From a virus (taxonomy: Duplodnaviria; Caudoviricetes), in the IMG/VR virus record IMGVR_UViG_3300001335_000583, positions 1 through 64,000 of that record: a stretch of DNA of 64,000 nucleotides; one strand, written 5' to 3'. This document shows, one piece after another, positions 2,898 to 62,279 of the stretch. Each line of letters opens with the position of its first letter. The stretch's first letter is position 1. Under the pieces are notes generated by a model that did no database searches, had not been told where the DNA came from, and saw only the letters and a program-made list of their open reading frames with translations. Made by a program: the position numbers and the translations under genes.

Positions 2898-5233
2898 ATG
2901 GCACAATTAAGCAAATTTCAGACTTTGACATTTTCACATTGGAAGGGTCAATGAGTCAGGCCCCCCTCATTAGTAATAATGAGGTAAACTTCGAGCAAAA
3001 TCGGTGAAACCTACCAGAACATTTTAGGTAATACCGAGGTAAATTAAAGGTAAAAACTTTAATCACCGTAACGCATAGAGGATGAAACTATGAAAAAAGC
3101 GTTCATTTACATAATAAGGAATACCAAGAATAACAAAGTTTACATCGGACAAACCAAAGTTAATTTGGAAACTAGATGGAAAGAACATGTTAGACATGCT
3201 AAGTATGGGAGATAGCTTATTAACAGAGCAATGAAAAAACATGGTATAGAAAATTTCCAAATGGAGTTAATAGAGGAATGTACAGTAAATGATGTTGATA
3301 GTAGAGAGATATTTTATAAAAAGAAATACAACGCTACTAATTTAAAACTTGGTTATAACATCAGTTTAGGAGGGGAAACTCCTAAATTAAAAAGACCTTG
3401 TTATGATCGTAATGACGCTTTAAAACTTTACAAAGAAAGGAAAAGTCTTGACTATGTCAGTAAACTATTTTGTGTAACAAGATATATACTGAGACAAGAT
3501 TTTGAAAAAGGAGGGGTAAGTATTAGAGATAGATATTTTTATAATAGAAAGTTTAATAGAATCCCAGAGTAGGAGATTTTAGAAAAACTAAATAAAAAAC
3601 TATCTATGAGAAAAGCAGCTAAAGCTTTAAACATTCCCTATTCAACTTTCCGTAAAGCTTGTAAAAATTACAACATAGAATATAATTCCTCCACGAGTGT
3701 TCGACATCCTGAAAAGGATGAAAATGTATGCTGACCTTACAGAATGGTAAATTGTAAGAACTAAGGGATAAAAAGCCTTTAGGATAACATCTGCTGACGA
3801 AAGAAAATCATTTAGGATCTATTTTCAAAGCTGCTCCCCAGAAAGCTACCAATCTTATGGTTTAGCTTTTAGCTTATTATAGGGGAAAAAACCTCGAAAC
3901 TTATTTGTCTCAGTTCCCTGTAAAGGAATTTGAAACTGATGATGAATATACCTGGGAAGTTATTGGTAACTCCCGCAGAAACATCCCTCTCATTGAAGCC
4001 AGAGATGAAGATGGTAATGTTATTACTACCGGCAATGCTGGTGTTGGAGGTGTTCCATTTTTTGTAGTATTCCCAGAAGACTGGTTTGCTGATGGCAACG
4101 TGATCGTGGGTGAGAAGAATGAGGTATATCCTTTGCGTGTTCTGGGAGATGCCAGGATGGAAGGAAGTAACGCGGTTTATAAGGTTGAACTTATGGGCGG
4201 AGTTACTGGTGGTATGCCTGCAGAAGAGCTGGCTGCTTTCAAGAGATTCAGTGTTGAATACTCACCTGTGGAGAAAGAACTCTCTCGTGAAGTTGGTGAT
4301 GTAAGATACACCTCTCCCGTGGCCATGCGTAACGAGTGGTCTACCATTAGAATCAAGCATAAAGTACCTGGTGGTATGCTGGGTAAGAAGCTTGCTGTAG
4401 GTATTCCATTTGTAGATGATGGCGGTAAAAAGATAATTCACAACATGTGGATGCATCATGTAGACTGGACTGTTGAACAAACCTTCGCTGATGAGAAAAA
4501 CAACCTTATCATGTATGGAAGAAGCAACAGGAACAGCAACGGTGAATACATGAACTTTGGTAAATCTGGCAATGTCATCAAGATGGGTGCTGGTATGAGA
4601 GAACAAATGGAAGTAGCCAACGTGCTTTACTACAACAACTTCTCTTTGAAACTCATTGAAGATGCCCTGTATGAACTTTCTGCTTCCAAGCTTGCTATGG
4701 GAGACAGGGTATTTGTTCTTAAAACAGGTGAAAGAGGAGCTGTTAAGTTCCATAAAGCTGTCCTTGAAGATGTATCTGGGTGGACTCTCTTTACCTTTGA
4801 TAACAACTCCATCGGTGCTATCAGTAAAACTACTTCAAAACTTCACTCTAATTCGTTGAGTGCAGGGTTCCAGTTTACCGAGTTTAAAGCTCCCAACGGG
4901 GTAACTGTAAAGGTAGAGGTAGATCCCATGTATGATGATCCTGTAAGAAACAAGGTACTGCATCCTGAGGGTGGGGTAGCTGAATCTTATCGCTTTGATC
5001 TGCTCTACATTGGTTCTATGGATCAACCAAACATCCAGTTGGCCCGTGTCAAGGGGATGCCTGAATTGAGAGGTTACCAGTGGGGTTTGAGAAATCCTTT
5101 TACAGGATAGATCAACAACGATAACATGAGTTATGATGAAGACTCTGCAGTAATTCACAAGATGTGGACAGGGGGAGTATTCATTTTGGATCCAACCAGA
5201 ACTATGTCGATCATTCCGTCAGTTCTAAGATGA
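2898..5233 (+). CDS. major capsid protein, spliced join(2898..2948,3794..5233), 496 aa (TAG=Gln)
   Basis: Exon 1 MAQLSKFQTLTFSHWKG plus exon 2 LTKENHLGSIF...NLMV(TAG)LLAYYRG...EYTWEVIG...RNPFTG(TAG)INNDNMSYDEDSAVIHK. Resembles the crAss-like HK97-fold MCP. TGA 5231-5233. Confidence 0.9.
2949..3793 (+). mobile_element. group I self-splicing intron in the MCP gene (845 nt)
   Basis: Exon ends in U (GGT 2946-2948) and the intron ends in G. IGS GGCCCC, P2 CTCATTA/TAATGAG, P3 TCGAGC/GTTCGA, P4 region AAATCGGTGAA, P7 GCATA/TATGC, P8 CATCC/GGATG, P9 CTTACA/TGTAAG. Removal restores the frame. Confidence 0.9.
3090..3734 (+). CDS. intron-encoded GIY-YIG homing endonuclease, 214 aa (TAG=Gln)
   Basis: MKKAFIYIIRNTKNNKVYIGQT...RWKEH...(TAG)LINRAMKKHGIENF...GYN, with C-terminal HTH-like repeats. 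TAG at 3213 and 3570, TGA 3732-3734. Confidence 0.85.
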
Positions 5234-5244
5234 AGTATATGATC

Positions 5245-5290
5245 AGGGTGGGGGAAGTAACTCTTCCCCTACTCTTTATTTTTTTTTTTA
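5245..5290 (+). terminator. intrinsic terminator after MCP
   Basis: G-rich/C-rich stem (GGGGAAG...CTTCCC) followed by a long T run. Confidence 0.7.
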
Positions 5291-5302
5291 ATTAATTAAT
5301 AT

Positions 5303-6289
5303 TTGGGAGAGTATATGGAAGAGAATTTAGCCCTGGATTTGGAAGACATCCAGGAAAACAAGAAAGTGGTTAAAAAGAGCTCTAGGGCCACGGAGACTAC
5401 TACAGAAGTAAAGAGGGAAAAGGCGGCAGAGCCTGCTGAATTTATATCCTGCCTGAGAAATGAAAAAGTGCTTGTTAAGCATATTCCCAGGGAATCCGGG
5501 ATGGTCAGTAACCCCAAGCATGTGTTTTACGGGGGTATGGCAGAGAATTCAGTGAGGATATTCACAGTTCCTATCCTGGAGAGTAGTGGTTCATTTATGA
5601 ATGTTCTTACAAATGATGAGAAGAATTTTCTTGAAGAGATAATGGGATTGGAATACAATGCTTTATCTATTTACAAGAAGCAAAATAACTTTTGGGCAAA
5701 CTATACGGTGCGCCTGACCAAGGGAGAGAATTACCTGGATTTAAGTAATCCGGATGATTACATTAAATATAAAGTCCTGTTAGCTAACAAGGATTTTATT
5801 GCTGCCTCCCTCAGGGATCTTCAAGACAGGCCCAAGGCTACTTACCAGTTCGTACTGATCATGGAAGAAGAAGAAACCAAACATGCCAGCATGAAGATGA
5901 GTGCCACCATGGAAGCTTACCTTGAATTTGGAAAGCTTCAGGAAGAAACAGACACCCTGAGATTGGTACTGGAAACCCTGGATGGAAGGCCTACTTCACC
6001 CAAAAGCAAACTGGATTTCTTGCAAACACAGGTAAATAAACTGATTCAAAGTAACCCGCAGCTATTTCTTAAAACTGTAAAAGATCCTTTTCTGCCTACA
6101 AAGGTTTTGATCAGGAGATCCATAGAAGCTGGTTTACTTGCCAAAAGAGGGGATTACCTCTATTTAAAATCAGATAACTCCCCATTATGTGAATCAGGAG
6201 AAGATCCTACTTTAAATGTAGCAGCGAAATACCTGAACTCTCCTAAACACCAGGAAGTAAAATTGATGTTGGAAGCTAAACTGAAGTGA
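5303..6289 (+). CDS. conserved post-MCP virion protein (portal-vertex protein-like)
   Basis: CLRNEKV...NPKHVFYGGMAENS... motif and position after MCP as in crAss-like phages. TTG start, alternative ATG 5315. No TAG. Confidence 0.7.
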   Translation: MGEYMEENLALDLEDIQENKKVVKKSSRATETTTEVKREKAAEPAEFISCLRNEKVLVKHIPRESGMVSNPKHVFYGGMAENSVRIFTVPILESSGSFMNVLTNDEKNFLEEIMGLEYNALSIYKKQNNFWANYTVRLTKGENYLDLSNPDDYIKYKVLLANKDFIAASLRDLQDRPKATYQFVLIMEEEETKHASMKMSATMEAYLEFGKLQEETDTLRLVLETLDGRPTSPKSKLDFLQTQVNKLIQSNPQLFLKTVKDPFLPTKVLIRRSIEAGLLAKRGDYLYLKSDNSPLCESGEDPTLNVAAKYLNSPKHQEVKLMLEAKLK

Positions 6290-10399: not shown

Positions 10400-10741
10400 A
10401 TGGAAGAAGTAACTAATATATCTTACGAAGCGATAAGAAGATATTTTACCACTCTCAGCTCCTTTGGATATAAGAGTTACAAAGAAGTTGACAAGTTACT
10501 GGTACTCCTTTTTATAGATGATCTTCTAAAAGGATCATTAAGTCAGTACGTAACAGAGGAAGATTACAGGGTTTTAATAAGACTCCTGAATAATCTGGGA
10601 GGGACAACCTGTCTTGTTCCCTATATCCAGTTGGAAGAAACACTGCATGTATAGAACAAGAAAATAGGAAGTTTTGTGTCAACAGACTATCAAAGTGCTA
10701 GTTACCAGCTATTAGATAATACATCTTTTACAATTATCTAA
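10400..10741 (+). CDS. small conserved virion protein (tail hub-type), 113 aa (TAG=Gln)
   Basis: YEAIRRYFTTLSSFGYKSY...CLVPY. One TAG at 10652, TAA 10739-10741. Confidence 0.6.
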
Positions 10742-10784
10742 TAACCGTATTTTTTTACCTTAAATAAGTAAACCCCTTAAATCC

Positions 10785-10815
10785 TTGTGTATATGAGATA
10801 CCTTTCTTATATTGC
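10785..10815 (+). promoter_or_regulatory. Bacteroidota-type promoter (TTG-N20-TATATTGC)
   Basis: Same 20-nt spacing as at 1641 and 18129, 23 nt upstream of ATG 10838. Confidence 0.5.
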
Positions 10816-10837
10816 AAGGATTTTTTAATTTAAAGCT

Positions 10838-11767
10838 ATGAATAGTATGCAGTAGGTATTAGACCTTTTCAAGTAGAAACCCTACCTAATCCGGATGGGA
10901 GCTAAAAAGATATCAGCCATCAGTGGCTTCAGTATTAAAGATATTAAAGAAGCACGCTCTCATCTTAGACACCAGAGAAGACAGTGTTACAACTCGCAAG
11001 TTAAAATACTTATTTTTGATATCGAGACATCTCCTTTAAAAGGTTTTGTATGGAGCAGGTGGAAACAAAACATCTACCTGGATCAAACTATAGCCGAGTG
11101 GTTCATGATCTCCTGGTCAGCAAAATGGGTAGGGTCTGATATCATGTATTCTGACGTACTTACTCCTGAAGAGATTTTAAAGGAAGATGATAAAAGAATT
11201 ACCGGAGGAATTTGGAAATTACTGGATGAAGCAGATATAGTGGTTGCTCATAATGGTAAAAGATTTGACATTCCCAAGTTAAACTCCAGGTTCATCTTGA
11301 ACAGGTTAAGCCCACCAGCTCCTTACAAACAGATAGATACCAAAGAAGTGTCAGCAAGATAGTTTGGGTTTAGTTCAAACAAGTTAGACGCGTTGGCTGG
11401 CTATTTTGATATACCTCACAAGTCTGACACAAATTTCCAATTATGGGGGGATTGTTTGGAAGGAAAACAAGAAGCCCTGGATTACATGCGAAAGTACAAC
11501 GAGCAGGATGTAAGAATCCTGGAGAGGGTGTACCTCAGGCTTAGACCCTGGATAAAAAACCATCCAAACATAGCCGTGTTTATTGAATCAGACGAGATAG
11601 TTTGTCCCTATTGTGGGTCTGCCAGCCTGGTAGAAACAGACAACTACTACCCCACCCAGGTCAATAAATACAAGACTCTGCGCTGTAAAGAGTGCGGAGG
11701 TATAGCAAGGAGAAGGACTACTGCCTATCCTAAAGATAAGAGGGAAAATTTAGTAACAAGTATTTGA
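10838..11767 (+). CDS. DEDD/RNase H-like 3'-5' exonuclease with C-terminal Zn ribbon, 309 aa (TAG=Gln)
   Basis: FDIETSP, AHNGKRFD, AR(TAG)FGFSSNKLDALA, YNEQDV, CPYC...CKEC. 3 TAG. Confidence 0.8.
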
Positions 11768-55732: not shown

Positions 55733-56404
55733 TTAGTTTTCATAATACCAGCTTATGGTAGTATTATGATTATTTAAAAGAATTTGATTAATTTTCACGA
55801 AGGCATCACACTCGTAGTTCTGTCCTGTTCTTGCTGCATGGGCCGGGTGTTTGTATTTTAAAATGTAATTATGCTTTCCCAGGTAAGGGATAAAGGTGTG
55901 AGCAATACTCCCGAACAGAACATAGATGATACCTGTATTAATCTCCGAGAGTCTTTGTAAAAAACTGGTCATGAAAGATCTCCACAACATCGTGTGGCTA
56001 CCTGTATAACCAGTCTCTACAGTAAGAGCTGAATTTATCATTAAACACCCCTGTCTGGCCCAAGTTTCCAGGCTATGGTCAAAAGTAATCTGGTTATGAG
56101 GCTTGGAAAAATCAACAGCACTCTCCTTTATCACCCTCAAAGAGGGGCTAATCTTAGCATCATCTTCTACATAATTGCCAAACAGTACACCTGTAGCTAT
56201 CCCTTTTTGGGGATAAGGATCTAGTCCTATCATAACTACTTTTAGTTCCGAGTAAGGACAAATATGAAAAGCTTTGAATACTAAAGATTTGGGGGGAGAG
56301 ATTTCTTTATGAGCATACTCATGTTCGAGTGTACCCATGATTTTTCTAAGTTCCTTGTAACTGATTACTTTTTTCCAATCACCAAAATAATCAGAAATAT
56401 CCAT
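55733..56404 (-). CDS. ung: uracil-DNA glycosylase (family 1)
   Basis: GLDPYP, WARQG, NSALTV, HTMLW, HPA. Confidence 0.85.
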   Translation of the reverse strand: MDISDYFGDWKKVISYKELRKIMGTLEHEYAHKEISPPKSLVFKAFHICPYSELKVVMIGLDPYPQKGIATGVLFGNYVEDDAKISPSLRVIKESAVDFSKPHNQITFDHSLETWARQGCLMINSALTVETGYTGSHTMLWRSFMTSFLQRLSEINTGIIYVLFGSIAHTFIPYLGKHNYILKYKHPAHAARTGQNYECDAFVKINQILLNNHNTTISWYYEN

Positions 56405-57105
56405 CAGGATACATTTAATATTTCATCTGCATGTGTTATTAAAAAGTTATTGATTTCATCATCGTTAATACCTTTTACAGGAACAGAAGGGGTTTTGATC
56501 CAGCTATCCAGATCCTCTACCTCTATCTTAATCTCCTGGGTAGATAGAACGTGGGGGACAACATGGCTTAGTATCATCTTGTGAATAGGATCGGTATTTT
56601 CTATAAAGACCCGGGGATGAAGAACTAGTTTCACGTCAGGATCACGTCTTGAAACTCCCCTTTCCAAGGTAATTCTCCCCATAAACGTGAAAATAAACTG
56701 GAAATCCTTGTTCAAGACCAGAGAGCTTCCCCCGTAATAAATACCCCCCTTGGAGGTAGTTACCTGAGTCAATCTTACCTTCTGATCAGTAGTTAATAAA
56801 GAGGTCAATACACTCTGGTTTGTTCTTCTCGAAACTTTTTGTTGAACCCACAAGGGACACATCAATCTTATAATATCTGGAGATGTGTCCAAGCTATCTA
56901 GTATATCCTGACGATTATACAAGATTACGGGAAGATAGAAATTTTCCAGTTCTTCCTTGCGCAGGCTTATATCCAGGTAACGATTGAAAAGTGTATTTTG
57001 TTGGAAATTTATCAACCTTCTATTCTCTACTACAGGCCCATACTCGTTGTGCTGGTAAGGAGCTGCTTCCAAGACATCTATTAAAGTTCTGCTTAAAGCC
57101 ATCAC
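56404..57105 (-). CDS. hypothetical protein coupled to the E1 gene
   Basis: 233 aa, ATGA overlap with the E1 stop and 1-nt overlap with ung. Confidence 0.7.
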   Translation of the reverse strand: MMALSRTLIDVLEAAPYQHNEYGPVVENRRLINFQQNTLFNRYLDISLRKEELENFYLPVILYNRQDILDSLDTSPDIIRLMCPLWVQQKVSRRTNQSVLTSLLTTDQKVRLTQVTTSKGGIYYGGSSLVLNKDFQFIFTFMGRITLERGVSRRDPDVKLVLHPRVFIENTDPIHKMILSHVVPHVLSTQEIKIEVEDLDSWIKTPSVPVKGINDDEINNFLITHADEILNVS

Positions 57106-58280
57106 GCGATTGTTTTAAAGTACATAGTCTCCGCGTTGTATGTAGTATAGAAGGGAACATCCCTTGGAATGACAGGATCACACTGGTTGGCTATGAAGTT
57201 TACAAAGGCATTGACCATCACAGACCCGATCATATTGGCCATGAAAGTAGTCTGCTTGTAACTACAAACAGTCTCTTCAGCTTCTTCATCTGTAAACAAG
57301 TGATTATCTGCATACTCTTTTATAGCCCTCTCGTCATCTCCTGCAATGGTAAACACCTGAAACTCTTCTGCAGCAAGCCTTCCATCTATGAAAAGACATT
57401 TAGACTTGTTCTGGGCACATTTTATATACCTTGACCAGTTCTGAAAAAAGGTTTTCCTGGCTTCCATGTTATCAAAGCCACAAATCATCACATCGTAGGT
57501 AGGGCTGGTTGAAGTGTATTTTTCACTAAGGGCACTGACGTGATAATAGTTGGCAAATTGCATCAGGTGACGAGCCAGACTAGCTGCTTTTTGTTCCTGT
57601 ACATCTCCCATGCCGTACCACTGGCCTGACAAGTTTACCTCTTCTACTATATCATCATCATACATGATAAGTTGAAGAGGATTCATCCTAGCCAATAAAA
57701 AGGCTACATAACTCCCTATCCCTCCCAACCCAGCTAATAAAATTCTTTGTTCCTGAATCTTCCCATACCAGAGGGCACTGCTAAAACGACTTGTAGTCTC
57801 TTTCAGCAGGATACTCTCTGAATTGGGAGTTACTGTAAACTCTGGGGAATCTTCAGGATTAGAATTTTGTTGTTCCTCTTCTGCTTCCTCCTCTGTTTCC
57901 CCATCATCTGATTCATCCCGCCACAACTGGTCAACCTGCCTATCTATCCCGAAGAAGGCTTCATTTATAGAAGCAAGATAGGGCCTTGAATCTTCTTCAG
58001 AGTCATCAGCAGGCTCTTCTGAAGGAGTATCTAATCCTAAATCCTGCAAGATCTCATCCGTGTTTACCTCTACACTTGCAGTAGTTTCGACAGTTTCCTG
58101 GATTACCTCGGACTCTTCTTCAGAAACTTCAATAGATTCTGAAGGTGGTGGGGAAACAACTGCCCCGGATTCAAAAATATTTCTCAGATACTCACTGACA
58201 TTTTCTGGTAGTAACGGGACACTTTCAGGTAAAGCTGTACTAATAAGGGGTGTCCTCATTGTATACGCATCATTATTCAT
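57102..58280 (-). CDS. E1/ThiF-family adenylyltransferase with acidic N-terminal extension, 392 aa
   Basis: GLGGIGS, DDDIVEEVNLSGQ, K..SL, CGFDNMEAR, DGR, TVCSYKQT. ATG 58278-58280 overlaps the JAB TGA. Confidence 0.85.
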   Translation of the reverse strand: MNNDAYTMRTPLISTALPESVPLLPENVSEYLRNIFESGAVVSPPPSESIEVSEEESEVIQETVETTASVEVNTDEILQDLGLDTPSEEPADDSEEDSRPYLASINEAFFGIDRQVDQLWRDESDDGETEEEAEEEQQNSNPEDSPEFTVTPNSESILLKETTSRFSSALWYGKIQEQRILLAGLGGIGSYVAFLLARMNPLQLIMYDDDIVEEVNLSGQWYGMGDVQEQKAASLARHLMQFANYYHVSALSEKYTSTSPTYDVMICGFDNMEARKTFFQNWSRYIKCAQNKSKCLFIDGRLAAEEFQVFTIAGDDERAIKEYADNHLFTDEEAEETVCSYKQTTFMANMIGSVMVNAFVNFIANQCDPVIPRDVPFYTTYNAETMYFKTIA

Positions 58281-59509
58281 AAAATATACAAACTTACGGT
58301 ATCTATCAGACTTTCTGTATAAATATTGCAAGGCAGCTTTTTAAGCTCTTCCTTAACACCAAAAGCACACAGGGCAAGCATGGCATCTTCTCCATAACCC
58401 CATAAATTAGGGTCTATTGTAGTAGTAAGAATAAACTCCACATGACCTTCTGCCCACATCTTGTAATCACTCAGGGTTTCAAACCTACGTTGAAAAAGTT
58501 GCTCAGATTTTTTTACAAAGCTCTCCAGGTCAAAATCATCAGAAGCATGGGTTAAAACAGACCCTGTTACAAGCTGCCTGACTACCTTTTTGATTATATC
58601 TTCATCAAAACGAACCACTCCGTAAGGAATACTAGTGTCTTCAAAAGGCTCTTCAAAGTCTTGTTCTGTTTGCTTTTGATACTTTTTAGAGTCTTTATAG
58701 GACATATCTACGAAGTCATCTTGAAAATCAAAATCAAAAGCTTTCTGTTTAAAAGCAGGAATTTTGTAATTTTCAGTTATAAGAGAGTTTGAATTGTTTG
58801 GAAATAACGTCTTATTTTTAAATGTACTTTGCCTGTCTTTTAAAGTTCTGATCTCTTTGATCCTGCCTTTTAATTCAGCGTGATCAAAATTGCCTTCAAT
58901 GATGACATCCAGGTAAAACCATTCTATCACTTCCACCTCTTCTACCCTGTTCCTGGAAGCATTTACCACACGATCAAAAAAGGAATGATATGAATAATCC
59001 TCTTTGATATCTTGCTTGGTAATAACCTTCCTGGTGATACCAGCCGTGTATTCCTTGTGATTGTTCACAATAAGGGATACAAAGTGGTTTTGATCTGCTC
59101 CTTCCTGTCTCAGGGTATTTTGATCTGTCCCAGAGAAGAAAGTAGACATGGAGTTGTGGGAGTGAATCAGTCCCATGAAGACATTTTCATCCAGTAGCTC
59201 CGGGTTATAAGCCATGTAACCGGCCAGATCAGGAGATCTGCTAAATTCCGTGTAAGCCATGCTCCCAATATCCTGTAAAAAGATATCCAGAACTGTGACT
59301 ATTAAAGGATTCTCTTTAGAATCAAACTCTCCCGAGATGGTATAGAACAGGGTTCCTGACCACTCTACTTCATGTATCTGGTTACACAGGTAATCTATTT
59401 TTTGTTGTACAGTGCCGGGGATTATCAGATCATAATATTCGGATTGCTTGCTTAATTGGGGCAATATTTTCTCCGGGGTTTTCACCGCTTTCATCGTGAG
59501 TGTTTCCAT
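58277..59509 (-). CDS. JAB/MPN metallopeptidase with C-terminal extension
   Basis: EWSG (catalytic E), HSHNSMSTFFSGTD (HxH-x7-S-x2-D). Confidence 0.85.
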   Translation of the reverse strand: METLTMKAVKTPEKILPQLSKQSEYYDLIIPGTVQQKIDYLCNQIHEVEWSGTLFYTISGEFDSKENPLIVTVLDIFLQDIGSMAYTEFSRSPDLAGYMAYNPELLDENVFMGLIHSHNSMSTFFSGTDQNTLRQEGADQNHFVSLIVNNHKEYTAGITRKVITKQDIKEDYSYHSFFDRVVNASRNRVEEVEVIEWFYLDVIIEGNFDHAELKGRIKEIRTLKDRQSTFKNKTLFPNNSNSLITENYKIPAFKQKAFDFDFQDDFVDMSYKDSKKYQKQTEQDFEEPFEDTSIPYGVVRFDEDIIKKVVRQLVTGSVLTHASDDFDLESFVKKSEQLFQRRFETLSDYKMWAEGHVEFILTTTIDPNLWGYGEDAMLALCAFGVKEELKKLPCNIYTESLIDTVSLYIL

Positions 59510-60600
59510 AATTTAAATTTATAATTGCTAAAATCTTCAACATTATTATTTCCAGGATGGCGGGATTTAACAGCAGGCTGTATTTGTCTGATTCTGAAAT
59601 ATCTGCATGTAACTCTAAAAAGACAGGTTGACCTTTAAAATCAAACAGGGGATGTTCACGGGGAACCCGTGAATAGTCTTGTATCTCTGATGCCAATTCG
59701 TAAAAACTGCTATTTTTAATAACACCTTTTACAAGCACACCATGTCCAAGTAAATCACCTTCATGCAACTTGTTGAGATTACACCATTCAATAAAACAGT
59801 TACTTACCAGTACCCAGAGATTCATGAAAGGAATCCCTATTCCATAACTGTGATTAAGATAATTAAACTTTAAAACTTTTTTTTGTAAAAGATACCTTTC
59901 AAAATCTTTCATACGATACGAGCTGGCATAACCACCATAAGATAAATTCCACAGCATAGTATACTTATTTATCTTACCTGTAGACAGGTTTGTTATAGCC
60001 TCTAACTTATGGTAAGGCCCTCCCGTGAGGGATTCTGTATGCACGAATTTATCCAGTTCATAGCAAAATATCTGCCACCTGGTTTCATCATAATCTACTC
60101 GTAAATTTCTCGAAGTATTAGCAATAGGGCCGCGTCCTATACAGGGAGTTCTAAATACCCCGGGATCATCTTTTGATATACTGTTTACATGACTGTGTAG
60201 GTAATTTTGTTCCCAATGTAAATAAGAATACCTAGACCTGTTTAATTCAATTGCAACTAGTTCTCCATTACCCCTGAGGGATATTTTAGCCCACAATCCT
60301 TCTATATCAATACTTTTATTGTATTCATTAGTCACGGTGATATCACCAAATTGAACTAATATGTAGGGAATAAAGTAATTACCCAGGTTAAAAATATGCT
60401 TCAAAGTCTTCTTCAGACAAGTCATCTAGTATCAAACGCGAGGATATGTTAAGAGCAGGATACATAGCCTCTTTTTCAATCACTTTTAACTCTACCTTTT
60501 CTTCCCCGTAATAGTCAGAAAAGATAGAGAGGACTTGCCGAGGCATCCTCAGCAAGTCTTCATACATCTCGTTAAAAAGCTGTTCCCTATCTTTCTCCAT
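59430..60600 (-). CDS. E2/UBC-like protein, about 389 aa, requires a +1 frameshift near 60390
   Basis: ORF 60388..60600 ends TAT TTT TAA and ORF 59430..60425 continues in the +1 frame. HSHV-x14-CIG resembles the E2 HPN...C signature. Confidence 0.55.
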
Positions 60601-60612
60601 ACCTTTTTTTAT

Positions 60613-61230
60613 TTAAGAAAGGCAATCATCAATCATCTCGTCCAGTTCATCTTTTTCATAAGGAGAATCTATCCCTGGTTCAGAGATATCTCCTTTTAAA
60701 ACACGACGGATAGGCTCTGTCTGCCGGGAAAAAAGATAATCATCTTCTTCCAATACATCCAACAGCATGTCAAGAGCTTTAGCACAATCCCCATCCTTTG
60801 CCTGAGGTTCTGCTTCAGGCTCTTCTTCCAGGTTTTCCTCTATAAAGTCTTCCAGTTCCGTGCTGGATACCTGGGTATAATTACGACCAAAAGTACCCTT
60901 GATGGCATCTTCCAAACCTTCATTTTTAATGATGTTGTACAAGGCCTTGCGAGAAGTCATCCCGGAACGAATCTTCTTGTTAGTGGTTGAAAGAACAAAC
61001 ACCAGTTCGTTGGTGATACTTCCCTTGTAAGGGATATTGGTAGGGAGAATGGAATCATCCCTTTTCAGGTCTGTTTTAGACACACCTTCGTAAAAATCCA
61101 TATCGGTGTAATCAATTCCCTGTGCATCCAGATCAGCTTTAAGTTCTCCCAAGGTAACAGCTGAAGACATGATCACCTTTTTGGCTTGTGCGTTTGTGGT
61201 TAAAACCACGGTAATTTTACGAGCTTCCAT
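60613..61230 (-). CDS. ubiquitin-like (beta-grasp) precursor: 90-aa Ubl ending KIRSG plus C-terminal extension
   Basis: Strand-strand-helix (TLGELKADL)-strand...strand (ELVFVL)-KKIRSG pattern. First gene upstream of E2/JAB/E1. Confidence 0.55.
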   Translation of the reverse strand: MEARKITVVLTTNAQAKKVIMSSAVTLGELKADLDAQGIDYTDMDFYEGVSKTDLKRDDSILPTNIPYKGSITNELVFVLSTTNKKIRSGMTSRKALYNIIKNEGLEDAIKGTFGRNYTQVSSTELEDFIEENLEEEPEAEPQAKDGDCAKALDMLLDVLEEDDYLFSRQTEPIRRVLKGDISEPGIDSPYEKDELDEMIDDCLS

Positions 61231-61244
61231 AATTTTTTCTATTT

Positions 61245-62279
61245 TTAAAATGAATTATTGATTTGTTTCTCTTTAATAAGGTGAGAAATAACCTTTTTTA
61301 CTTTCTCTCTGTTAAAATTCTTACATAGATCTGAAGGATCTTTTGACTGGTACTCTTCCGGAATCTCTATCTGAATTAATCCAAACTCTATTGCCATTCC
61401 TTCTGCCAGTAATCTTCCATAATTGATGTCTGAATTAAAGTCGTTATCATACAGTACAAATACATTTTTAAAACGATCCTTTAATTCTTGTACCACATGT
61501 TGTTTAGGTAAGTAACTTTCTGCCTGTAGAGAGCAACTGGGTATGCCTGTATTCTCCCAGACACACAAGGCATCTTTTCTGGAAGAGGCTATAACCAGGT
61601 TTTCTCCACTTTTAGGAAGTTGTTCCCATAGATCCCACACGCTGGAATCGTGTTTATTAGACCATTTAAAAGTAGTGTTGAAAGGTTGATAAATTTTCAA
61701 AGTTGTATTATCATCCTTGTGTTCTACATACACATAAGCATGCCTGTCTGCAGGTATAATAAACTCTCTCCCCCGTTTTTTCACGATAACATGTGAAATA
61801 GCATGCACGTTTCCAAACTTTAACCAGGGAATAGAGATACCATACTCTTCCCAGTAAGCCAGGTCATGGGCTCTCCAGGGTCTTACCTTGACTTGTAGAT
61901 CTACCTGCGAAGAGTAAACCTTTTTGTTTTGCCTGTATTGTGGTTTTTTAGTAAAAGTTGTTTCAGCTCCTGTTGAATTGGCAATCTTAAGGAGGTCTGC
62001 TGTTAGCCTCTCTACCACACTGGTAAAGGGTATCCCCCATAAGGCAGATAAAAGATCCATAGTACCACCAGATTCCCTGGTCCTGAAATCCCTGTAATGT
62101 AACTTTATCCCGTTGTTAGAGTAAATCCCGAAAGAGGGTTTTACATCTTTTCGCAAGGGAGAATTAATCAGGCAGGGGATGGTGTTAATTTCTAAGTAGT
62201 AAGCGAGTATTTGAAACTCACTTACTACATTGAGAATATCTTCCAGGGTAGTGCTACTATTGCCTTTACTAAAACCCAT
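61245..62279 (-). CDS. DNA primase (TOPRIM)
   Basis: SPLRKDVKPSF, YRDF, SSRKD, LYDND, KDPSD. Confidence 0.8.
   Translation of the reverse strand: MGFSKGNSSTTLEDILNVVSEFQILAYYLEINTIPCLINSPLRKDVKPSFGIYSNNGIKLHYRDFRTRESGGTMDLLSALWGIPFTSVVERLTADLLKIANSTGAETTFTKKPQYRQNKKVYSSQVDLQVKVRPWRAHDLAYWEEYGISIPWLKFGNVHAISHVIVKKRGREFIIPADRHAYVYVEHKDDNTTLKIYQPFNTTFKWSNKHDSSVWDLWEQLPKSGENLVIASSRKDALCVWENTGIPSCSLQAESYLPKQHVVQELKDRFKNVFVLYDNDFNSDINYGRLLAEGMAIEFGLIQIEIPEEYQSKDPSDLCKNFNREKVKKVISHLIKEKQINNSF

Follow-up and report, generated by a model that had tools for sequence, protein, structure and literature searches.

Conjugation of ubiquitin-like (Ubl) proteins in prokaryotes has so far been understood as a weapon of bacteria against phages, as in the cyclic-oligonucleotide-based antiphage signalling system (CBASS), with its Cap2 and Cap3 proteins, and in Bil. 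The Bil operons, which encode a Ubl, an E2, a JAB peptidase and an E1, conjugate proteins in bacteria, and in some homologues of the Bil Ubl, BilA, 2-9 residues follow the conserved Gly (10.1101/2023.09.04.556158). Iyer et al. 2006 (PMC1779556) predicted that a JAB peptidase frees a Ubl from the C-terminal domain to which it is fused. Here we analyzed a gene set of this kind that is carried by a phage. It lies in the first 64 kb (hereafter the window, 64,000 nucleotides) of the 78,361-bp virus record IMGVR_UViG_3300001335_000583, whose nearest annotated relatives are the Steigviridae crAss-like phages crAss001, Kolpuevirus, cr126_1 and bajarodcaudo virus 1. An initial annotation had read four genes of the window, between the primase and uracil-DNA glycosylase (UDG) genes, as a Ubl precursor, an E2, a JAB peptidase and a ThiF/E1 protein. 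We consider it reasonably probable that they form a phage-encoded Ubl conjugation cassette that is transcribed with the replication genes. The absence of any earlier account of the complete module as a phage ubiquitination system, which had been surmised, agrees with our full-text literature search, in which no description of the module in crAss-like phages was found, Yutin et al. 2021 included, although most subscription papers were outside the reach of this search.

Gene order and linkage of the cassette

The genes of the cassette, the parts of their products and the two flanking genes are located in the window as follows.

60613-61230, minus strand: putative Ubl precursor gene (tag protein, 205 aa), an open reading frame (ORF) of phrog_15560, a family of unknown function, with 1465 homologues
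60961-61230, minus strand: residues 1-90 of the tag protein, predicted ubiquitin-like beta-grasp (strand-strand-helix-strands) with the flexible tail NKKIRSG, from the model and fold matches
60616-60960, minus strand: residues 91-205 of the tag protein, C-terminal extension, from the alignment, with model helices at residues 94-204
60388-60600, minus strand: E2-like gene, 5' fragment, 70 aa, equal to residues 1-68 of the intact 396-aa relative P0121
59430-60425, minus strand: E2-like gene, 3' fragment, 331-aa ORF, with the predicted UBC-like core and the C-terminal domain
60397-60398, minus strand: point at which 20 nt are deleted in comparison with contig L083, from pairwise DNA alignment
58277-59509, minus strand: JAB/JAMM metallopeptidase gene, 410 aa (Prok-JAB 5e-4, JAMM motif exact)
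57102-58331, minus strand: gene of the E1-like ThiF adenylation enzyme, 409 aa (PF00899, 4e-21)
56404-57105, minus strand: fifth conserved gene, 233 aa, equivalent of crAss001 gp75, assigned by synteny in 76/84 loci
61245-62279: primase gene (phrog_12622, 1e-50)
55733-56404: UDG gene (PF03167)

The cassette is part of an extended series of replication genes on the minus strand, which comprises genes for single-stranded DNA-binding (SSB)-like and annealing proteins and the primase, then the cassette, and then genes for UDG, nucleases and ribonucleotide reductase. Within it, the E2-like and JAB genes overlap by 80 nt and the JAB and E1 genes by 55 nt. The description of four coupled minus-strand genes was borne out by the ORFs, the overlaps and the primase and UDG flanks, except that a fifth gene (56404-57105) sits before the UDG gene; it is translationally coupled on both sides, with a 4-nt overlap with the E1 gene and a 1-nt overlap with the UDG gene. 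No family (Pfam, PHROG and NCBIfam searches) and no confident fold lead were found for the fifth gene, whose product might confer specificity on the cassette or be one of its targets. In crAss001 the counterparts are gp79 (tag) and gp78 (E2-like), both annotated as hypothetical, gp77 (JAB), annotated as 'metalloprotease domain', gp76 (E1), annotated as 'thiamine biosynthesis protein ThiF', and the hypothetical gp75 (fifth gene). Under translation table 11 no in-frame stops were seen in the five cassette genes.

The co-conservation of the four genes, which had been proposed as a check, proved to be strict. The order primase, Ubl, E2-like, JAB, E1, fifth gene and UDG was found in a row across each of the 84 phage or viral loci that had enough DNA to be counted (80 IMG/VR contigs, crAss001, Kolpuevirus, L083 and the Flavobacterium phage FpV4), a gene at the position equivalent to the fifth being present in 76 of them. 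The same order was seen in Dulem virus 41 and in four contigs of metagenome-assembled genomes that evidently consist of phage DNA. In the FpV4 group of Flavobacterium phages, at about 25-40% identity, UDG is located upstream of the cassette, and the four genes remain together in unchanged order. In the phage collection only Steigviridae-like and FpV4-like phages carry the cassette, and the prototype crAssphage was blank in the E1 search. Cellular genomes are almost devoid of the family: 185,579 prokaryote genomes yielded 4 loci, all of them with phage synteny.

A further ThiF protein was noticed in the jumbo Xanthomonas phage PhiXhv-12 (L085, 2241-6491). It is 227 aa long, 30% identical and matches PF00899 at 5e-21, and its gene, a short distance upstream of topoisomerase genes, has small ORFs and the gene of an 892-aa hypothetical protein as neighbors. 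This locus was rejected as an instance of the same system, because the neighbors fail the E2-like and Ubl profiles, and it may be a different ThiF-based system.

The tag domain is separable from its extension at Ser-Gly

The motifs quoted in the initial annotation for all four proteins were found at the coordinates given there, and for the tag protein the decisive one is KKIRSG, which occupies residues 85-90 of the 205 and ends at the Gly90 codon (60961-60963). The protein has no Pfam, NCBIfam or PADLOC family. Its AlphaFold2 model (mean predicted local distance difference test score, pLDDT, 78) has strand-strand-helix-strands over residues 1-82 and helical domains thereafter, and the tail in between is disordered (pLDDT below 50 at residues 84-91). 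VIA-align, an exhaustive search independent of Foldseek in which Z values below 8 can reflect a common arrangement, returned beta-grasp proteins in all of its best 50 rows, with Z 6.7-9.2 over the model range 1-85 and root-mean-square deviations (rmsd) of 2.1-3.6 Å over 68-83 residues. DIX/SOSEKI domains ranked highest (Z 8.3-9.2), and ubiquitin, FAT10, UBX and MoaD matched at about Z 7, with an rmsd of 2.1-3 Å over about 70-77 residues. Foldseek also placed ubiquitin, Ubl and DIX domains on top, with a probability of about 1.0 and E values of about 2e-3. The beta-grasp fold that had been suspected in the first 90 residues is therefore backed by the fold model and by both structure searches.

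The end of this domain is strongly conserved, as had been asked of the Gly90 motif. S89 and G90 are invariant in an alignment of 37 tag sequences, a K-K-I-x-S-G type motif was present in all 120 of the first homologues (1465 in the database), and x-S-G was found in 90 of 90 loci; the tag protein of FpV4 carries KSGG at the equivalent position. By its modelled fold, then, the tag protein has the beta-grasp with a conserved Gly that is expected of prokaryotic Ubl-E2-JAB-E1 operons. The part that follows Gly90, described at the outset as a helical and acidic extension, agrees with that description in the model helices at residues 94-204 and in the alignment, which shows a conserved helix pair (R94, Y98, L106, FG-x-N-x-T) that is duplicated in some homologues, then a variable acidic linker, and finally, at the C-terminus, an acidic motif that is conserved, D-E-L/I-D-E/D-M-I/F.

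A search for short relatives of the tag protein brought up proteins of 91-96 aa with the C-terminus two residues past S-G. In three contigs, L026, L036 and L087, the tag gene stops 2 residues past S-G and the C-domain is encoded by a separate ORF, with an ATG of its own a few codons upstream of the usual sequence. A free-standing homing-endonuclease gene of the HNH/NUMOD type is located directly after the split in two of them (L087:6309-6857 and L026, approximately 4990-5700), and a decayed remnant of such a gene is found in the third (L036, approximately 5275-5560). The non-coding DNA that flanks the endonuclease ORF measures about 15-30 nt per side. A group I intron was rejected as the cause of the split, because the Rfam search was blank at this point in L026, L036 and L087, although it was positive for group I introns in JAB and E1 genes elsewhere in this set of loci (RF00028, 66-97 bits; L012:7485-7744, L065:8412-8669 and 10703-10975, L087:9796-10059). 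These introns interrupt the JAB gene in L012, L065 and L087, and the E1 gene in L065. Since the ORFs are separate and no intron was found at S-G, the two halves of the tag protein are separate polypeptides in L026, L036 and L087. Hence the tag domain can be separated from the extension at S-G, and no covalent link between them is needed. Such a split fits a precursor that is normally cut at this point, and would fit a tolerant linker equally. Furthermore, the presence of introns and homing genes in three genes of the cassette speaks for the conservation of, and a need for, these genes. Next to the L087 intron is a LAGLIDADG-like ORF, and in this contig HNH genes flank the primase gene on both sides.

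The E2-like, JAB and E1-like proteins

The E2-like gene is a single 396-aa ORF in contig L083. Over about 290 aligned nt the sole difference between L083 and the window DNA consists of 20 nt that are absent from the window, between 60398 and 60397. The product of this ORF is the cluster representative P0121, which is 98% identical, and its first 68 residues equal those of the 70-aa ORF in the window; this 5' fragment ends at a TTT TAA made by the deletion. The E2-like gene of the window is broken, through a deletion or an assembly error, and the junction is not a designed frameshift site. A programmed +1 frameshift at TTT-TAA-C was rejected as the primary reading because L083, otherwise identical over about 290 nt, carries 20 more nt and an intact ORF; some low-level +1 read-through could in principle occur at this junction.

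The 331-aa ORF of the window contains L-H-S-H-V (60186-60200) and the PCIGRGP motif, with the Cys of P-C-I-G at 60141-60143. Among the PHROGs the protein falls into a group of unknown function. The family to which it belongs is very large, with 2761 clusters at 50% identity in a profile search of 1.84 billion representatives. Among 145 members that are mutually less than 50% identical, N98, E99, S143, H144, C160, G162, W182, C186, E188, E196, S197, G200 and P202 are invariant, and H142 is nearly so. In the FpV4 protein the position of C186 is not occupied by Cys, and H-S-H and C160 are kept; hence C160 is the single universal Cys of the family, and the conservation that had been expected of the E2-like Cys was observed. 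The motif [aromatic]-[LM]-H-S-H-[VL]...P-C-[LI]-G is similar to [FY]-H-P-N-[IV]...C-[LI] of classical E2s.

The AlphaFold2 model of the intact relative P0121 reached a pLDDT of 88 and a predicted template modelling score (pTM) of 0.79. In its VIA-align search the best 50 rows were mostly E2, UEV or RWD domains, at Z 4.2-5.9, values at which a match can reflect a common arrangement, over model residues of approximately 10-210; they included BubB (9eav_D, Z 4.6), the E2 domain of Cap2 (7to3_A, Z 4.4) and Atg10, and no other fold recurred among the top matches. The model shows N-terminal helices, three long strands, the H-S-H loop, the Cys and two helices in this order, and this order of elements matches the UBC topology. 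Residues of approximately 215-396 form a further domain for which no fold was recognized, and the ESM Atlas offered no usable lead for the protein. The construction of a Prok-E2 profile for hhalign was given up, as PF14461 had no match in any of 401 genomes or in the controls. A UBC-like fold is thus probable on the evidence of the model. Of the claim that the protein with HSHV and C(IG) is an E2, the motifs, the invariant H144 and C160 and the recurring UBC-like fold matches stood, whereas the 331-aa ORF turned out to be only the 3' fragment of the gene and no link to an E2 profile was obtained.

The metal site of the JAB peptidase is intact, as had been stated. Glu49 is found in E-V-E-W-S-G (59354-59371), HSH-x7-S-x2-D spans residues 116-129 (59123-59164), and E49, H116, H118, S126 and D129 are conserved in at least 95% of 42 non-redundant homologues. 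The profile matches of the protein are weak (Prok-JAB at 5e-4, which is below the cutoff, and PADLOC JAB at 2e-3), and a C-terminal extension of about 260 aa follows the peptidase domain.

The E1-like protein carries GLGGIG (57714-57731), NLSGQ (57621-57635), CGFDN (57468-57482), DDD and TVCSYKQ (57252-57272), the last of which contains Cys356. In at least 95% of 51 homologues R182, G201/G203/G204, D225/D227, N233, Q237, K248, D287, R292 and C356 are conserved, so that the expectation of a conserved Cys was borne out here as well. Cys356, which lies 69 residues past the Mg-binding Asp, is the candidate catalytic Cys judging from the sequence, and it occupies the position that the crossover-loop Cys has in ThiF and MoeB. 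The protein lacks a Zn-binding CxxC pair and a rhodanese domain. Its PADLOC matches were Cap2 E1-E2 models (down to 4e-13), 6A-MBL cap2_3 (1e-8) and BilD (4.4e-5), and its best sequence matches in the PDB and NCBIfam were MccB and ThiF. The assignment as a ThiF/E1 with a catalytic Cys was upheld by GxGGxG, DxD, CGFD and the conserved C356, with the reservation that the ATP motif, NLSGQ, is non-canonical. Judging from their sequences, the E1-like and JAB proteins have what is expected of the E1 and JAB of prokaryotic Ubl-E2-JAB-E1 operons, except for the Arg of N-L-x-R-Q in the E1. Residues 1-180 of the E1-like protein (57792-58331) are strongly acidic and of low complexity; this region is missing from FpV4, and relatives differ in its length.

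Interpretation and comparison with known systems

From these features we infer the chemical steps of a cascade and its targets. The 205-aa protein would be a pro-Ubl, composed of the beta-grasp, the tail to Ser89-Gly90 and the fused helical and acidic C-terminal domain. The JAMM peptidase would cut after Gly90 and free the Gly carboxylate, and may also reverse the conjugation. The ThiF-type E1 would then adenylate Gly90 and probably load it on the crossover-loop Cys356, and the UBC-like protein would take the Ubl on Cys160 (numbering of the intact homologue) and hand it to lysines of the targets. Phage replication proteins or host proteins are the candidate targets, and they might be chosen by the product of the fifth gene or by the E2-like and JAB proteins through their large C-terminal domains. 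In the genome analyzed here the cascade may stop at the E1, unless the break in the E2-like gene arose in the assembly or is made good by a two-piece protein or by +1 slippage at TTT-TAA-C. More broadly, there is about an even chance that the Steigviridae and FpV4-like phages run a complete Ubl cascade during replication, with a tag made as a fusion precursor and a new, phage-specific E2 family.

Several results weigh against a conjugation cassette. In the window the E2-like gene is frameshifted by the 20-nt deletion. The UBC assignment of its product rests on modest Z values below 6, and Foldseek gave no match of the model in the PDB at E<=0.001; no E2 family was found in Pfam (the window protein and 10 members), NCBIfam or PADLOC, and hmmsearch of the PDB with profiles of 10 and of 145 E2-like sequences yielded nothing relevant. 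Cys160 would lie at the E2 active-site position only as judged from the order of the secondary-structure elements. In structure the tag domain is best matched by the polymerizing domains of DIX/SOSEKI, tied with ubiquitin, and the Gly of S-G is internal in 87 of 90 loci and located 2 residues from the C-terminus in the other 3, so that for most loci cleavage is what we infer. In the E1-like protein the ATP motif reads NLSGQ, not N-L-x-R-Q, with Gly236 conserved in at least 95% of homologues and present also in FpV4, and the second Arg of the N-terminal R-x-x-R-Q helix is absent when compared with MccB; therefore, with these Args missing, the ATP chemistry is not guaranteed. In addition, no E3 was recognized for the cassette.

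The alternative that survives best, which we nevertheless hold to be unlikely, is that the Ubl is processed and activated without being conjugated, either for maturation, as a thiocarboxylate sulfur carrier or for a regulated release of the C-domain of the kind proposed for lambda TAPI/gpK, and that the UBC-like protein is a non-catalytic scaffold of the UEV/RWD type. Sets of JAB, ThiS/MoaD-like and E1 proteins for sulfur transfer exist, and TAPI-type proteins, a Ubl plus a C-domain, are encoded beside a JAB peptidase in phages (PMC1779556). The tag domain also matches MoaD in fold (Z 7.3-7.4), but the tail ends in S-G and not in the G-G of sulfur carriers, and no rhodanese, cysteine desulfurase or sulfur-acceptor enzyme was found in the gene row. 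In the PDB and NCBIfam the E1-like protein is best matched in sequence by the non-conjugating MccB and ThiF, yet its Cys356 is conserved. Likewise, the match to E2s is weak, with UEV/RWD folds at a similar rank, but an invariant Cys and His are present in the 145 UBC-like members, unlike in UEV/RWD domains.

It is very unlikely that the cassette serves counter-defence, with the JAB peptidase removing Ubl or cGAS conjugates of the host (Bil, type II CBASS), the E1 and E2-like proteins mimicking or titrating host components, and the beta-grasp as a decoy. The proximity of the E1 to CBASS Cap2 models (4e-13) and 6A-MBL cap2_3 (1e-8), and the match of the JAB to a CBASS-type model, would suit this role, but the matches span only the Rossmann core and fall far under the family cutoffs. 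The position among replication genes makes early expression plausible; a decoy, however, fails to explain four co-conserved genes whose catalytic residues are kept down to about 25-40% identity and in phages of different host genera. Finally, the 205-aa protein could be conceived as an uncleaved accessory of the replisome, with a self-associating, DIX/PB1-like beta-grasp (DIX/SOSEKI matches at Z 8.3-9.2), a helix-hairpin (the helix pair, duplicated in some) and an SSB-like acidic tail (the C-terminal motif), encoded directly after the primase and next to genes unrelated in role, but this is improbable in view of the invariant S-G in a disordered tail, the split at this point in three relatives, in which no covalent link is needed, and the JAB, E1 and UBC-like neighbors in every locus, even in FpV4 with its rearranged flanks.

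If the conjugation cassette is real, a complete Ubl-conjugation system would have been found for the first time in a bacterial virus, and such viruses, like those of eukaryotes, would also use protein tagging, either of replisome or host proteins or in the subversion of host Ubl-based immunity. The carriers include some of the most abundant phages of the human gut, and cultured ones are available (crAss001, DAC15 and the Kolpuevirus and Kehishuvirus isolates on Bacteroides, and FpV4 on Flavobacterium), so that the proposal is directly testable. In addition, a very large E2-like family (2761 clusters) without database annotation has been defined, and the tag genes split by homing endonucleases constitute a natural experiment that would mark the processing site.

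Among the described systems, Bil (BilA Ubl, BilB E2, BilC JAB and BilD E1; class 6d of Iyer et al. 2006) has the same four separate genes and an extra uncharacterized gene. As here, its Ubl ends in a single conserved Gly and its E1 lacks a rhodanese domain, with a thioester Cys in Bil and a candidate Cys in the cassette. In contrast, the cassette tag bears a C-terminal domain of about 115 aa, and class 6d E2s have no upstream His and a downstream His instead (PMC1779556), whereas the E2-like protein of the cassette resembles classical E2s, with an invariant His that precedes the Cys by 16 residues. Of the Bil profiles in PADLOC only BilD matched (4.4e-5, over the Rossmann core) and BilA, BilB and BilC were blank, which does not place the cassette within Bil. 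Moreover, Bil is a bacterial defence, and the cassette belongs to the replication modules of phages and hardly occurs in cellular genomes. Bub (BubA Ubl, BubB E2 and BubC E1) represents diverged bacterial Ubl pathways with unusual Ubl architectures, and BubB is among the fold matches of the E2-like protein; Bub operons are cellular, and no sequence similarity to the cassette was detected.

Type II CBASS offers the best sequence similarity to the Rossmann core of the cassette E1, its Cap2 E2 is among the fold matches, and a JAB partner is shared. However, Cap2 is an E2-E1 fusion that is accompanied by a CD-NTase and an effector, whereas the cassette has separate E1 and E2-like proteins and none of these, and the tag of CBASS is the C-terminus of the cyclase, in contrast to the dedicated beta-grasp tag of the cassette. 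The PRTRC systems of plasmids and integrative and conjugative elements have a ThiF and JAB-like pair on mobile elements in common with the cassette. The matches to PRTRC_ThiF (2.5e-9) and PRTRC protein A (1e-3) were weak and missed the cutoffs (36.8 against 144.75 bits, and 18.5 against 101.8), no ParB was found and the other PRTRC proteins were blank, so that the cassette falls outside this group. It also differs from the ThiS/MoaD sulfur carriers, which have a G-G end, a rhodanese or desulfurase and an acceptor, since its tag has x-S-G and none of these partners is encoded in the row.

A phage precedent is provided by the lambda and T1 TAPI proteins with the gpK JAB, in which, as in the cassette, a phage beta-grasp with a conserved Gly is followed by a C-terminal domain and release by JAB is predicted (PMC1779556). 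The TAPI sets are without E1 or E2 and belong to tail modules, whereas the cassette has both enzymes and belongs to the replication module. By analogy with these systems, the cassette would be a variant of the prokaryotic Ubl conjugation systems, in which a presumed conjugation step follows the processing and activation of the tag.

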